A stretch of 64,000 nucleotides of DNA from Candidatus Bathyarchaeota archaeon. Its GTDB lineage: Archaea > Thermoproteota > Bathyarchaeia > Bathyarchaeales > Bathycorpusculaceae. Positions 30,407 to 34,195 of the stretch are shown here, piece by piece. Positions within the stretch are counted from its first letter, which is position 1, and each line of letters starts with the position of its first letter. The stretch covers positions 512,001 through 576,000 of the forward strand of contig CAWHVC010000001.1 of the NCBI GenBank assembly GCA_963832745.1. Reading direction: 5' to 3'. Made by a program: the position numbers and the translations under genes. Below the pieces are notes generated by a model. That model did not search any database. It was not told where the DNA came from and saw only the letters and a list, made by a program, of their open reading frames with translations.

Positions 30407-30618
30407 GTCAACTCACGTGTCTTAGTCTATTTAAATAGTACACACGGGGTATATAAAGCATCTATTTATAAAGGGTTTTGAGCTAAGATTTTTGTTTAAA
30501 AAAAGCATTTTCTTTGTTGCTTCAGGGGTAAAAACATGTTTTTATTCAAGTTTATACATGTAAACGTTTTAATTTAGACACCTAACAGGCGCGCCTTAAA
30601 GTGTCAAATATTAGTGGA

Positions 30619-30627
30619 TTTTTTGAG
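30619..30627 (+). repeat. Target-site duplication, left (TTTTTTGAG)
   Basis: Identical 9-mer at 34187-34195 directly abutting the right TIR. Confidence 0.92.
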
Positions 30628-30650
30628 GATACTGTTAAGTTAAGTTACCT
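30628..30650 (+). repeat. Left terminal inverted repeat
   Basis: GATACTGTTAAGTTAAGTTACCT is the exact reverse complement of 34164-34186. Confidence 0.97.
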
Positions 30651-30729
30651 AATCAAAAAATTCTTCTACCTAAGAAACAATGGAGTATTTGGATGTTGTC
30701 AGTTTTTTATTGGAGGTATTTGCTAGCAA

Positions 30730-31810
30730 ATGAGCGGTAGCAAAAAAATTTATATGACTTCTGATAATGCAAATCGTGCAAAAAATATGATTTACGCAGT
30801 TTGGAACAATAAGGGCGGTACTGGAAAAACTTTTCTCACTTTTATGATGGCTGGTGAGTACGCCGCAGATAACCCTGAACAGAAAGTGGTTGTCATTGAC
30901 CTTTGCCCTCAAGCTAATGTAAGCGAGATAGTATTGGGTGGAAACGGGCGTGGCTCAACTGTTACTAGATACTCTTTTAAATAAAAAACCTAAACGATTA
31001 ACCATCGGCGGTTATCTGGATGACAGAATTTCATCACCTTACAAGATTACAGGAACAGAAGCAGATTATCTCGTAAATCCTTTATCAATGGGCTATAATG
31101 TTAACATGCCTGCAAACTTATACATCATTGCTGGAGACCCATCTCTGGAACTGCAAGCTCAAGTTATAAATCAATTGAGCATTTTGCAGCAACCAGAAGA
31201 CGCTTGGAAAAAAGTGCATTCATGGATAATCGATCTAATATCAGAGATTAAAAAATACCTTGGAGAAGATACTATGTTCTTCATAGATTGCAATCCAAGT
31301 TTTGCATCTTATACTGAATTGGCAATCCTCGCTTCAGAACGATTAGCAGTGCCGTGTAGCGCCGATGGGTCATCTGCAAGAGCAATTGACAACATGGGTA
31401 GATTAGTTTATGGCGTTAATGTCCCTTCACAATACCAGAAAACGAACTTTTTCAGTAATGTAAAGGCGTTTAATATGAAATTACCTGAAATACATCTAGT
31501 TATACTTAACAGAAGCACTCAATATGGTAGTAAGGCATCTAAAGGATTTAGCGCTATGTTTGGTGAAATAAAAAGAAGGACAGATGCACTCGCCGCAACA
31601 AAGATTATTCCCTTCTCAAAGAACTCAGGTCTTTACGTAGATATTCCAGATAATCACACGTTATCGATAGTTTGTTCACATCTAGGGTTGCCAATTTCTT
31701 CTCTAAAATCAGGTACACCATACAATGTTCATGGAAAGACCACAGTTATTCCGAAGAGTTCTTACGATACATATCTTGCTGCTGTTCACAACTTAATTGA
31801 CGCATTATAG
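30730..31810 (+). pseudogene. ParA/MinD-family ATPase split by one frameshift near 30960
   Basis: NNKGGTGKT and IDLCPQAN in ORF 30730-30984; FFIDCNPSF and VPCSADGSS in ORF 30938-31810. Confidence 0.85.
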
Positions 31811-31818
31811 GAATTTTC

Positions 31819-31971
31819 CTAAGTAATCTTCACTTTCTGTTTTATTTTACTTTCATACTCGTCCTCGGTTATGATTCCTTTTTCGATAAGCAAGTCAACT
31901 AAGGCTGAGTGCATGTTATCTAAGAGGTCTAGTTCTTCTAATGGTTCTCTTTCAACTTTATTCTTTTTCAT
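31819..31971 (-). CDS. Small SHOCT-like protein (50 aa)
   Basis: MKKNKVEREPLEELDLLDNMHSALVDLLIEKGIITEDEYESKIK; AGGTGG SD; overlaps the RHH gene end. Confidence 0.75.
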   Translation of the reverse strand: MKKNKVEREPLEELDLLDNMHSALVDLLIEKGIITEDEYESKIKQKVKIT

Positions 31972-32125
31972 GTTTTCCACCTTTTGCTAAGTAACCTTGT
32001 TCTGATAGCCAATTAATGATTATATTACGAAGAGTGTCACTATGACCTTCTCCAAGCGTGCCAACAAGTTCTTTGTCTAATATTTCGACTACGCCATCAG
32101 GTAATGAAACTAAGATTTTCTTCAT
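31958..32125 (-). CDS. Ribbon-helix-helix (CopG/Arc-like) regulator (55 aa)
   Basis: MKKILVSLPDGVVEILDKELVGTLGEGHSDTLRNIIINWLSEQGYL; ATGA overlap with the transposase stop. Confidence 0.8.
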   Translation of the reverse strand: MKKILVSLPDGVVEILDKELVGTLGEGHSDTLRNIIINWLSEQGYLAKGGKHEKE

Positions 32126-33030
32126 TTACTTACTACCTTTAACCCTTCTTTCTCTTCCGCCTTTTCTGTTAAGGCGTTTACTAGCGTTGTAGCTTCTTTT
32201 TTGGTAGCTTCATCAATCAAGCCTTTCCAGTTATTAGGAATGTTCATTCTTGCGGCTTGAGCGGGAGTTTTTCCGCCGAGACTTTGGTGTGGTCTTACGC
32301 AGTTGTAGTGAACTGACCAGCCTTCGAGTAAGAGTTTTGTTGAGTCATAGCTGTGTAGCCCTCTCATGCATCGAGTTCTATCTTTTAATGTACAGTGTAA
32401 TCGTTCGACTATGTTGTTGGTTTCTCTTGCTTTTATGCCGACTCTTTGCACTAACTCAACTCTTGTGTCCTTGCGCATTGTGTAGAATACTTTGTTAAAC
32501 GCACTCTTGTAAACATGGCTGCCGTCAACAAATACCGCTCTTGGTCTAACCTTGCTCTGTTGAACACCTTTCTTAAAGATACTAACTGTATCCTCAAAAG
32601 TTCGAGTATTGGAAAGATGTGAAGCAACCATAAATCGTGTGTCCTCATCAATCATTTCCCAGAACCAAATACTGCGCCCCTCACAACTCAGCATAGTTTC
32701 ATCTTCATGCCATAAACCTGAAAGCTGTGGAACTTCTGCAATCATGTATTCTTTGACTAATTGTGAGTATTTTTTAATCCAGTTTAGAATTGTAACTTGT
32801 GAAACTTTTTCGCCAAAAACTTGCTCTAAGTTGCGTTGGGTTTTTCTTAGGGACATGCCGTCGTAGTAGAAGTTTAGGGCTGCGACAATTATGTTTTTGT
32901 CGTTTCGCATTCTTGAGAATTTTGTGTTTGGTACAAAGATGTGACCGCAGTCTTTGCATTTGTAGGTTTGCTTGTTGTGGCGTATGCCTTTTTTGGTGAC
33001 GTTTGCTGAGTTGCAGTATTTACAGTTCAT
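32122..33030 (-). CDS. DDE transposase, IS6-related, with N-terminal Zn ribbon and HTH
   Basis: CKYC..CKDC, MSLRKTQ..VSQVTILNWI HTH, catalytic WHEDET / FVDG / NNIVERLH, HYNCVRPHQSLGGKTPA. Confidence 0.95.
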   Translation of the reverse strand: MNCKYCNSANVTKKGIRHNKQTYKCKDCGHIFVPNTKFSRMRNDKNIIVAALNFYYDGMSLRKTQRNLEQVFGEKVSQVTILNWIKKYSQLVKEYMIAEVPQLSGLWHEDETMLSCEGRSIWFWEMIDEDTRFMVASHLSNTRTFEDTVSIFKKGVQQSKVRPRAVFVDGSHVYKSAFNKVFYTMRKDTRVELVQRVGIKARETNNIVERLHCTLKDRTRCMRGLHSYDSTKLLLEGWSVHYNCVRPHQSLGGKTPAQAARMNIPNNWKGLIDEATKKEATTLVNALTEKAEEKEGLKVVSK

Positions 33031-33041
33031 GGCTTTTCACT

Positions 33042-33059
33042 GGTATCTTATAAGATACC
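33042..33059. promoter_or_regulatory. Perfect 18-bp palindrome (candidate operator) just upstream of the transposase start
   Basis: GGTATCTTATAAGATACC, between a TATATA box (~33065-33071) and the ATG at 33030. Confidence 0.65.
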
Positions 33060-33171
33060 TACAGTATATATGTTTTGTGTTAGTTTTTAAACACTTAACA
33101 AAATGTCATTCAAGTTTTTGTAACTTAACAAAAAGTATATCTTGTCGTACTTCACCATAAAAAGTAGGGAG

Positions 33172-33246
33172 CACCCCAAGGGGGATTTGAACCCCCGACC
33201 TAGCCCTTAGTAGGAGCCTGCAATTTCCTGACTATGCTATTGGGGC
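33172..33246 (-). tRNA. tRNA or tRNA-like gene, anticodon ACT, short variable arm, Arg-like body
   Basis: GCCCCAA TA GCAT AGTCAGGAAA TTGC A GGCTC CT-ACT-AA GGGCT AGGTC GGGGG TTCAAAT CCCCC TTGGGGT G; U8, A14, G15:C48, G18G19, U33, TTC and A58 all present. Confidence 0.85.
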
Positions 33247-33252
33247 GCTTAA

Positions 33253-33310
33253 CGTTGGGATAACATCATGGGTCGAAAGGCATTCTTTTGGACATGATGT
33301 TATCCTAACG
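33253..33310 (-). other. Long hairpin immediately 5' of the tRNA-like gene
   Basis: CGTTGGGATAACATCATG (33253-33270) / CATGATGTTATCCTAACG (33293-33310), 17 of 18 positions complementary. Confidence 0.8.
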
Positions 33311-33340
33311 GTCACTCCATTAGAGAATGACTTTGATTTT

Positions 33341-33850
33341 CTAGAACGCATTGTTTAGTCCTGTGCTTAATGGTTTAGCGCCGTCACCCTGTAACTGACC
33401 ACTTTTTATTATGCCCATACTTTCTTCCAGAGATTTTGTCAAAGGTTTGAAAACATATTTTTTAAGATTCTTTTCGCATGTAGGTAATGCTTCGAATCTG
33501 CCTTGCTTTTGGTGTTCAATTATCTTCCTTGCGTTTTGAAGTAATAATGATAATTTGCGGTATTCACGGGGATTTTGGCGAGAAGTTATTTTTTCTTTTA
33601 AAAAGTAACTCGCTATCGTCAAAATGTCATGTTCGTATTTTGGTGGTATAGATAATATAAAAGTTAGCAGTTGGTCAACATCAGGCATTCTTTGCATAAG
33701 AGTTGACTTGTATGTGCTAGATGTTTTTTCGTATGTAGCAGGGCGGTCAGTTGGTCTTTTTGTCATACGCTGTATAATTTCTAAGATTTCTTCTTGCGAA
33801 CCTTCAATTTCAAATGTTTGGTTGTCTATAGCAAACTTTAGTTTTGGCAT
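33341..33850 (-). CDS. Transposon passenger, hypothetical protein
   Basis: 169-aa ORF with TTTATATAA box about 20 bp upstream; lies inside the TIRs. Confidence 0.75.
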   Translation of the reverse strand: MPKLKFAIDNQTFEIEGSQEEILEIIQRMTKRPTDRPATYEKTSSTYKSTLMQRMPDVDQLLTFILSIPPKYEHDILTIASYFLKEKITSRQNPREYRKLSLLLQNARKIIEHQKQGRFEALPTCEKNLKKYVFKPLTKSLEESMGIIKSGQLQGDGAKPLSTGLNNAF

Positions 33851-33922
33851 TAGATACCATCAACTCGTTATATAAAGTAGGAATAGCCTAGAATTTAAGC
33901 GTTTACACATTACTTCACGCAA

Positions 33923-33941
33923 GTGATTCACGGTGAATCAC
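33923..33941. promoter_or_regulatory. Perfect 9-1-9 palindrome (candidate operator)
   Basis: GTGATTCAC-G-GTGAATCAC upstream of the 33850 promoter. Confidence 0.55.
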
Positions 33942-34163
33942 GTTTTAACACATACACGGTTTCAATAAAAGTGCTAGAATTATATGTTACGTTATTAATC
34001 GTATCATGGACTGCTTGCCGTGTTTATATATAAATATTAAAATCGCACTCGTAAATTTAAGATAGCACAATTTCCACTGGAACTTAGATAAAAAAGCTGT
34101 GAAAAATTATTCAACCATATGGTCAATTTACCGCCCCCGCAATAACCCTCTTATTTTTAGCAC

Positions 34164-34186
34164 AGGTAACTTAACTTAACAGTATC
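34164..34186 (-). repeat. Right terminal inverted repeat
   Basis: AGGTAACTTAACTTAACAGTATC. Confidence 0.97.
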
Positions 34187-34195
34187 TTTTTTGAG
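34187..34195 (+). repeat. Target-site duplication, right (TTTTTTGAG)
   Basis: Matches 30619-30627. Confidence 0.92.

Follow-up and report, generated by a model that had tools for sequence, protein, structure and literature searches.

Can a transposase of the IS6 type carry, within a single pair of ends, a regulator module, passenger genes and an RNA gene? This question is raised by a 3,559-bp segment of the genome of a Candidatus Bathyarchaeota archaeon (GenBank assembly GCA_963832745.1), which lies in a 64,000-nucleotide stretch of contig CAWHVC010000001.1; this whole stretch is referred to as the window, and the coordinates of the element are window positions. In all likelihood, the segment is a single-copy, non-composite DDE unit transposon that belongs to an IS6-related family with exchangeable cargo, found mainly in Bathyarchaeia and with distant relatives in metagenome-assembled genomes (MAGs) of Nitrososphaeria. 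The mobile unit is built of three layers, namely inverted ends starting with GATACTG, a central operon whose overlapping frames encode the transposase, an RHH-like and a SHOCT-like protein, and two arms filled with cargo (Table 1). The cargo of the window element consists of a frameshifted gene for a ParA-like ATPase on one arm and, on the other, of orf169 followed by an RNA module of ~170 nt, leader plus tRNA, the tRNA module being the most unusual component of the element.

Delimitation of the element and its empty site

The terminal inverted repeats (TIRs) of the element, GATACTGTTAAGTTAAGTTACCT and its reverse complement, are extended inwards by less perfectly matching arms and are abutted on both sides by the same 9-bp target-site duplication. 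An initial annotation, made from the letters of the window, had reported the perfect ends and the duplication enclosing 3,559 bp, and all of them were recovered in place. A search of the window for the TIR, with up to three mismatches allowed, returned two matches, compared to none in 100 shuffled sequences, and the same two copies are the only ones in the whole genome (3.02 Mb in five contigs). Similarly, the proteins of the element have no second locus in this genome, save for one transposase paralogue on another contig. The GC content of the element (37.5%, compared to 41.5% for the window) also speaks in favor of a transposon.

The insertion site lies between the gene for the TATA-binding protein (TBP) and rps30e. 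If the segment is a transposon inserted at this site, then relatives should display an uninterrupted spacer containing a single copy of the 9-mer, as the initial annotation had predicted. Among the 29 TBP orthologue loci from the same genus that were examined, two (in genomes G008 and G017) have TBP flanked by rps30e and ELP3, as in the window. Their TBP–rps30e spacers are 267 and 268 bp long, and the window spacer minus the element and one copy of the duplication is 268 bp; moreover, the alignment runs unbroken across the insertion point, where a single 9-mer is found, TTTGTTGGG in one relative and TTTTTTAAG in the other. The breadth of this comparison is a point against it: the empty site is seen in just two of the 29 relatives, the remaining 27 having a different gene order and being hence uninformative. 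In eight of these 27 that were checked, neither rps30e nor ELP3 lies within 12 kb of TBP. An insertion hot spot upstream of TBP was considered and rejected, the 27 relatives merely differing in gene order. Note that, compared to the 29 TBP loci (L016–L044), there is a synteny break within the genus at window positions 30407–30627, and that none of the right-hand neighbors in the window is found within 12 kb of TBP in eight same-genus genomes that were checked.

Altogether, there is one transposase, TIRs are present at two ends only, and the duplication flanks the whole unit, which bears out the non-composite character proposed initially; a single TIR pair around a transposase and its passengers, with the duplication outside the whole unit, is the layout of unit transposons and of transporter insertion sequences (ISs). 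The insertion is recent. Judged from its sequence, the transposon is real and its ends and transposase are structurally intact, the D110, D169 and E209 residues of the latter being invariant; the word "intact", used of the entire element in the initial annotation, does not extend to the ParA-like gene, which is frameshifted.

Table 1. Features of the window element, with the TGT-fold open reading frames (ORFs) of related loci
Feature	Position	Strand	Remarks
Left target-site duplication	30619–30627		TTTTTTGAG; abuts the left TIR; one 9-mer there in relatives
Left TIR	30628–30650	+	23 bp perfect, 34 nt at 88% match; tip GATACTGT common to 27 related elements
ParA-like P-loop ATPase gene, frameshifted	30730–31810	+	Pfam AAA_31 and CbiA on the N-terminal piece
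SHOCT-like small ORF (53 aa), third operon gene	31819–31980	-	Pfam SHOCT, E 0.0057, below cut-off
RHH-like small ORF (55 aa)	31958–32125	-	Weak RHH_1 matches of homologues; follows the transposase
Transposase (302 aa)	32122–33030	-	N-terminal four-Cys zinc ribbon, then IS6-type DDE domain
Perfect palindrome (18 bp), putative operator	33042–33059		GGTATCTTATAAGATACC; 29 nt upstream of the transposase ATG
tRNA, anticodon ACU, short variable arm	33171–33246	-	ARAGORN, Rfam, covariation; T5 run after the gene
Structured leader	33253–33331	-	Hairpin 1 (33311–33331) and long hairpin 2 (33253–33310), between orf169 and the tRNA
Orphan ORF orf169 (169 aa)	33341–33850	-	Three relatives among 5.8 billion clusters
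Right TIR	34164–34186	-	Inverted match to the left TIR
Right target-site duplication	34187–34195		TTTTTTGAG; abuts the right TIR
~450-aa TGT-fold ORF	L048:2973–4325	-	Absent from the window element
~450-aa TGT-fold ORF	L053:2770–4203	-	Absent from the window element
~450-aa TGT-fold ORF	L075:3471–4811	+	Absent from the window element

A family of elements with variable arms

A scan using one genome per species yielded 59 related loci, most of them in Bathyarchaeia MAGs. Nitrososphaeria MAGs contain relatives with 45–59% identity, and still more remote ones occur in Methanolobus, Nitrosopumilus and Chloroflexi. Inverted ends starting with GATACTG delimit 27 of the 59 loci, a motif with which the ends of the Nitrososphaeria elements could not be delimited. 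Together with the window element, this makes 28 delimited elements, which are 2,224 to 7,988 bp long (median 4,402) and have inverted ends of 21–31 bp. An exact 9-bp duplication flanks 24 of them; in one more, eight of the nine positions match, and three have none. The latter (L055, L060 and L083) possess good inverted ends but no target duplication, a state that would be compatible with recombination between copies or with replicative events within one molecule and is no proof of a cointegrate route.

The genes in the arms vary from element to element. A tabulation of the cargo across homologues, which the initial annotation had proposed, comprises 104 arm ORFs from 27 elements, 29 of which have Pfam matches at E ≤1e-5. 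These include seven N6_N4 methylases (three of them fused to Mrr) and two N6_Mtase proteins, one D12 methylase paired with a SacI endonuclease, three GmrSD, two HATPase_c_3 and two NYN proteins, as well as PIN, HicB-like, DUF3800 and ParB_N proteins, a ParA and a ClpP-like protease. Since most of these matches are to restriction or defence proteins, the family carries restriction and defence genes. Literature searches found no published description of a cargo-carrying, IS6-related archaeal architecture, and a survey of the thaumarchaeal mobilome, in the part that deals with IS-like transposons, has them with one or two genes only (PMC6563490). Thus, this family of IS6-like, cargo-swapping transposons is apparently undescribed.

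The transposase and its place relative to IS6

The transposase ORF sits in the center of the element and not next to a TIR, as noticed at the outset, with 1.47 kb of the element on its left side and 1.13 kb on its right. The encoded protein passes the NCBIfam IS6 model NF033587 with 133.7 bits (cut-off 125), the match covering model positions 1–202 of 202; its top Pfam match is DDE_Tnp_IS240 (E 2.5e-19), and the DDE triad is followed by K/R, as in IS6 transposases. All 43 homologues retain C3, C25, C28, D110, D169 and E209, and C6, K216 and R218 are each kept in 42 of them. The nearest named relatives, found in a plasmid collection, are "IS6-like element ISCpe7 family" transposases from Clostridium plasmids, which display 27–30% identity over residues 3–268. 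The paralogue present in the same genome is an IS6-like transposase gene with 34% identity (G000:C3:616738–617559), and similar distant transposase paralogues, with open frames of ~380 aa, occur in many members of the genus.

The IS6 label nonetheless appears only partly earned, several features weighing against it. According to the part of a review that describes them, classical IS6 elements are 700–890 bp long, with a few reaching 1.76 kb, contain the transposase gene only and generate 8-bp duplications (PMC7986276). By contrast, the duplication is 9 bp long here and in 24 of the 28 family elements, and the size (3,559 bp here, 2,224–7,988 bp family-wide) goes together with accessory ORFs and cargo. 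The ends, which start with GATACTG, have G1 and G7 but an A at position 2; the long and archaeal clades likewise depart from GG ends in the account given of them by Harmer and Hall (PMC6807381). In that same account, these authors doubt that even the long zinc-finger clade belongs in IS6/IS26 (PMC6807381). The description of the element as IS6-related but atypical holds on both counts: NF033587 is passed, whereas size, gene content and duplication length fall outside what the relevant part of the review describes (PMC7986276).

Could the family then be a separate zinc-ribbon DDE family outside IS6, about as close to IS1 as to the long ISCpe7-type clade? This would alter the filing and leave the mechanism unchanged, and we see this as a real possibility, although not the one that we favor. 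It draws on the 9-bp duplications found in 24 of the 28 elements, a length that IS1 also yields, on the match of the zinc ribbon to the IS1/IS1595 zinc domain NF050000 (34.3 bits, cut-off 28) and on the identity to ISCpe7-type transposases, which is just 27–30%; in addition, Harmer and Hall would take the long and archaeal clades out of IS6/IS26, as stated in the portion of their article that treats these clades (PMC6807381). On the other side, the transposase matches the curated IS6 model from end to end and above its cut-off but fails the IS1 model (63.7 bits, cut-off 100), the top Pfam match is DDE_Tnp_IS240, and the ACTGT core and the G at position 7 of the ends resemble the IS26-type consensus, in the form in which it appears in the same portion of that article (PMC6807381). 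Keeping the IS6-related reading, we note four departures of the family from IS6, namely the length of the duplication, the size of the elements, the accessory genes and the cargo.

The core operon and a putative operator

The initial annotation had the transposase translationally coupled to the two small ORFs, and the corresponding overlaps are indeed observed: the transposase stop codon overlaps the start codon of the RHH-like ORF as ATGA (32122–32125), and the SHOCT-like ORF overlaps the RHH-like ORF by 23 nt. Using the window proteins as tblastn queries, we found the RHH-like ORF behind the transposase in 50 of the 59 related loci, the nine loci without it being distant or truncated ones, and the SHOCT-like ORF in 38 of the 59. 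The idea of a fixed core with exchangeable cargo is therefore upheld by these two ORFs and by the differing arms, but the tRNA, which had been tentatively counted with the core, lies outside the family-wide one.

The names RHH and SHOCT are reasonable but weak. Pfam RHH_1 is matched by three of 27 RHH-like homologues (best E 1e-6), and Pfam SHOCT by six of 20 SHOCT-like homologues (best E 0.0025). When the RHH-like profile was compared to the PDB, the top matches were leucine-rich repeat proteins, which were rejected as spurious (they share an LxSLPxxV word), and CopG and MazE6 came at E ~1. The weakness of both assignments counts against the regulatory side of our proposal, so that a repressor role for the module is something we infer.

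In 34 of 43 loci, the 90 nt that precede the transposase contain a perfect palindrome whose arms are 6 bp or longer, compared to five of 44 control windows inside the gene. Most of these palindromes lie between -27 and -37 or around -60 to -70 from the start codon, and in most elements a TATA-like box stands beside them. The palindrome covaries with the clade, being GGTATC...GATACC in Bathyarchaeia and GCATATCC...GGATATGC, at the same place, in the Nitrososphaeria relatives. Loci with the Nitrososphaeria-type palindrome (L077–L081 and L094) have it ~30 nt upstream of the transposase start. Furthermore, the half-site resembles the GATAC tip of the element ends. The palindrome may thus be an operator, to which a dimer of the RHH-like protein, or else the transposase, would bind. 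TIR-like TGTTAAGT repeats upstream of the transposase were also considered as a candidate and dropped; they are present in the window copy only and absent from 18 other elements.

A genuine tRNA restricted to one subclade

The RNA passenger had been called "tRNA-like", which understates its nature, since ARAGORN, Rfam and covariation all point to a genuine tRNA. ARAGORN calls a gene with anticodon ACT, labelled tRNA-Ser, and Rfam model RF00005 gives 54.1 bits against a threshold of 29. The ACU tRNA is found in all eight closest elements, on either strand and at varied positions, and a ninth element, L073, has a GCU version. In the transposase tree, the tRNA carriers form, together with one non-carrier, a clade with a support of 0.995. 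Contrary to the suggestion that it might belong to the fixed core, the tRNA is confined to this subclade, whose transposases are at least ~80% identical to that of the window, and its position and strand vary. A tRNA pattern scan yielded 53 metagenomic loci (L107–L159) and zero matches in viral contigs; 40 of the 53 loci hold the transposon core or a tRNA-flanking ORF family, and the other 13 are mostly short contigs.

We aligned 61 copies of the tRNA (52 distinct). Standard pairs make up 96.1% of the pair cells, and 15 of the 20 pairs show compensatory change, which occurs in all four helices. These values were not reached in any of 500 shuffles, and pairing in slid controls was 35–56%. G18, G19, A20, the T loop and an anticodon loop C-Y-A-C-U-A-A are invariant or nearly so; more specifically, all 50 full-length copies have A20, and C35 and U36 do not vary. 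As discriminator, 28 copies have G and 24 have A, and CC comes next in most copies. These patterns indicate that the tRNA is under purifying selection for its cloverleaf. One reservation concerns the anticodon: the pattern with which the 53 metagenomic copies were found prescribes ACU, and the unbiased sample is that of the nine transposase-found copies, which comprises eight ACU and one GCU.

It could be argued that the tRNA is a decaying hitchhiker, or a mere processing or terminator signal, devoid of tRNA function. We consider this improbable. The ACU anticodon is, admittedly, essentially never used by archaea, tRNAs with an anticodon starting with A (tRNA-ANNs) being nearly absent from 167 genomes in the part of the survey that reports them (PMC6000648); position 33 is C instead of the usual U in 13 of the 52 distinct copies, the D stem of the window copy is weak, and the location of the tRNA 11–28 nt after an ORF stop in many loci would suit an RNase P/Z processing site. 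Nevertheless, the cloverleaf is kept through compensatory change in all of its helices, as are G18, G19, A20, the T loop and the C-Y-A-C-U-A-A loop, with CC after the discriminator in most copies, and a processing signal alone would need neither an invariant anticodon nor A20.

Other tRNA observations were made in related loci. At L075:4818–4893, the tRNA that follows a TGT-like ORF has an apparent 8-nt anticodon loop (TTTGGTAA), for which ARAGORN gives a two-base anticodon. A tRNA-Leu(UAA) at L060:6351–6439 (minus strand), directly after an orf169 homologue, and an Ala(UGC)-like tRNA at L062:4768–4846 (minus strand) lie inside or beside the respective elements. Finally, a Val(GAC) tRNA is located in Methanolobus vulcani (L085:4765–4840), 160 nt upstream of a related transposase gene that is accompanied by neither the RHH nor the SHOCT ORF.

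Identity of the ACU tRNA

If the tRNA decodes a serine codon as a serine tRNA, then it should be recognized by SerRS, which requires a long variable arm. However, it is 76 nt long with a variable region of 5 nt, compared to 87 nt for the tRNA-Ser genes of the host, and hence does not have the long arm of class II tRNAs. ArgRS, for its part, reads A20, C35 and U36 or G36, according to rules derived from the bacterial and yeast enzymes. In this host, all five arginine tRNA genes have an A after G18-G19, a feature otherwise seen only in an initiator-like Met tRNA, in one intron-containing call typed Pro and in one implausible call of 1,769 nt, which was treated as spurious. The Pro(tgg) call (G000:C3:78185–78326) has an arginine-type D loop (CACGGAT) and discriminator G, and may be a mis-typed tRNA-Arg(CCU). 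The window tRNA combines A20, C35, U36 and G73, the combination that marks arginine tRNAs in this host; charging by ArgRS rather than SerRS is therefore most likely and constitutes our best guess.

Two points weigh against this assignment. It draws on general identity rules and on resemblance, and, when host tRNAs are scored with the covariance model of the element tRNA, Lys(UUU) and Ile(GAU), with 72.3 and 70.8 bits, come near Arg(UCU), with 77.4 bits; Ser(GCU) obtains 40.6 bits. Plain identity to host tRNAs is indecisive (0.65–0.73).

Bolder readings are that the tRNA inserts arginine at AGU serine codons or that it is withheld from the ribosome for the benefit of a partner enzyme; both are speculative, and we rate them as rather unlikely. 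A recoding test gave no sign of AGU being read as arginine: the AGT codons of the transposases of eight carriers (52 sites) and those of 13 TGT-like genes occupy variable columns; AGT is never used where arginine is conserved, and conserved serines are encoded by TCN. AGT usage is 15 of 943 codons in the element, compared to 9.9 per 1000 in long host ORFs, the former being a small sample. Literature searches found no published description of such a transposon-borne ACU tRNA.

The leader and the ORFs next to the tRNA

The leader that separates the tRNA from orf169 forms two hairpins, both of which are kept in nine aligned elements, with compensatory change at six of 23 pairs and conserved loop sequences. 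In three more divergent copies, a different long hairpin is found at this position. Leader and tRNA taken together (176 nt) have a folding z of -5.15, and a search of Rfam with the leader at a permissive threshold returned nothing but the tRNA. Since the leader is also a palindrome at the DNA level, it may alternatively be a site to which a protein binds.

Three families, unrelated to one another, provide the ORF that immediately precedes the tRNA: orf169, found in the window and, next to the tRNA-Leu(UAA), in L060; a ~237-aa family, which by eye looks winged-helix-like; and a ~450-aa family, which stops 11–28 nt before the tRNA and is directly upstream of it in 22 of the 53 metagenomic loci. 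The profile of the ~450-aa family matches the archaeal tRNA-guanine transglycosylase ArcTGT (1iq8) with E 6e-4, with the CxCxxC...H zinc site aligned, and four of 13 members match Pfam TGT. An AlphaFold2 (AF2) model of this protein has a pLDDT of 86.5, and the best 50 Foldseek PDB matches listed are all TGT or ArcTGT, with a probability of 1.00. The ~450-aa family is thus predicted to have the tRNA-guanine transglycosylase (TGT) fold and its zinc site; its members could be DNA modifiers similar to DpdA or enzymes that act on the ACU tRNA.

The remaining cargo of the window element

The ParA-like gene is split over two frames (30730–30984 and 30938–31810), and the score of its product with NCBIfam ParA_partition is below the cut-off. 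Using as a guide a metagenomic homologue with 77% identity, which consists of a single open frame of 357 codons (L122), the frameshift was mapped near 30961–30966, between GRGST and LLDTLL and outside any homopolymer. This cargo gene is probably broken, although an assembly error is also possible.

The product of orf169 has no Pfam or NCBIfam match and no usable Atlas match, and its AF2 model is poor (pLDDT 53); the homologue that adjoins a different tRNA in L060 is 38% identical. Note that cluster P0001, which is 99% identical to orf169, is found on a single contig of 3,566 nt, a length close to the 3,559 bp of the element; the element may have been assembled alone there, as a repeat or a circle.

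Finally, that these 3.6 kb are the remnant of a plasmid or virus captured or mobilised once, and not a regularly moving unit, as the plasmid-typical ParA-like and RHH-like genes and the GC content below that of the host might suggest, is very improbable, the duplication and the empty site fitting a 3,559-bp unit exactly, 24 other elements with other cargo and at other sites having each their own 9-bp duplication, and ParA being absent from the other delimited elements save for an unrelated one in L053.

Comparison with known systems

Among characterized ISs, the closest are those of the ISCpe7 clade (clade VII of Harmer and Hall 2019; clade h of Varani et al. 2021), which share with the present family a DDE transposase that bears a zinc finger and passes the NCBIfam IS6 model, as well as inverted ends with an ACTGT core and a G at position 7. 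They differ from it in several ways: the transposases are 27–30% identical, and family elements reach 2.2–8 kb compared to the 1.2–1.3 kb given for the clade in the section of the article devoted to it (PMC6807381); here, two conserved accessory ORFs and a multi-gene cargo lie inside the ends, duplications are 9 bp and not 8 bp long, the second base of the ends is A, and the hosts are archaea. ISDsp3 of Dehalococcoides, which the pertinent part of the review names as the single IS6 member with a passenger gene (PMC7986276), is likewise an IS6-type element with a non-transposition gene inside its ends. As described in the part of the article that covers it, ISDsp3 is 1,456 bp long, has one hypothetical passenger gene and contains no intact zinc finger (PMC6807381). 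Compared by description, the present family differs from it in its gene number (three to eight), in its conserved RHH/SHOCT module and in the presence of an RNA gene. Distant relatives of the family transposase, with 35–38% identity, occur in Dehalococcoidia and Chloroflexi MAGs.

The general organization, with a single transposase, ends placed around variable cargo and a regulator beside the transposase, is that of unit transposons (e.g. the Tn3 family) and of transporter ISs (tIS). Unlike Tn3-type unit transposons, the present element has no resolvase or res site, its transposase belongs to a different superfamily branch, and it generates duplications of 9 bp, compared to 5 bp for Tn3. Lastly, the tRNA gene is similar to those of phages and other mobile elements, in that a sound tRNA, which the host does not need for standard decoding, is present on a mobile element. 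In contrast to known mobile-element or anticodon-variant tRNAs, it resides on a DDE transposon, the first base of its anticodon is A and its host an archaeon, an arginine-type body is combined with a serine-codon anticodon, a conserved two-hairpin leader precedes it, and a TGT-fold protein is encoded directly upstream in 22 of the 53 metagenomic loci.

Discussion

In the scheme that we propose, the transposase would bind the GATAC-tipped ends and cut the target with a 9-bp stagger. The RHH-like dimer would repress the operon at the GGTATC-N6-GATACC palindrome, and the SHOCT-like protein would perhaps oligomerise this dimer. The element would move either conservatively or, in the way of IS26, replicatively via cointegrates.

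IS6/IS26 elements are textbook minimal ISs, which move other genes only when they act in pairs, as pseudo-compound transposons. A large archaeal branch that packs restriction and defence genes, a regulator module and a tRNA inside one pair of ends represents a different route to cargo mobility. Should the tRNA act at AGU codons in the way considered above, it would be a mobile mistranslating or recoding tRNA, possibly a weapon or a stress device carried beside the defence cargo; should it serve a partner enzyme, it would be an aminoacyl donor, a substrate or a decoy, the obvious partner being the TGT-fold protein encoded 11–28 nt upstream. In either case, this would be the first RNA-plus-enzyme cargo module of such a kind on a DDE transposon. 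Independently of these possibilities, the family contributes to an explanation of the circulation of defence genes among Bathyarchaeia, an uncultured lineage that is abundant in sediments and soils, and the conserved tRNA, whose body and anticodon are apparently mismatched, raises the question of whether mobile elements manipulate archaeal decoding or tRNA-dependent chemistry.

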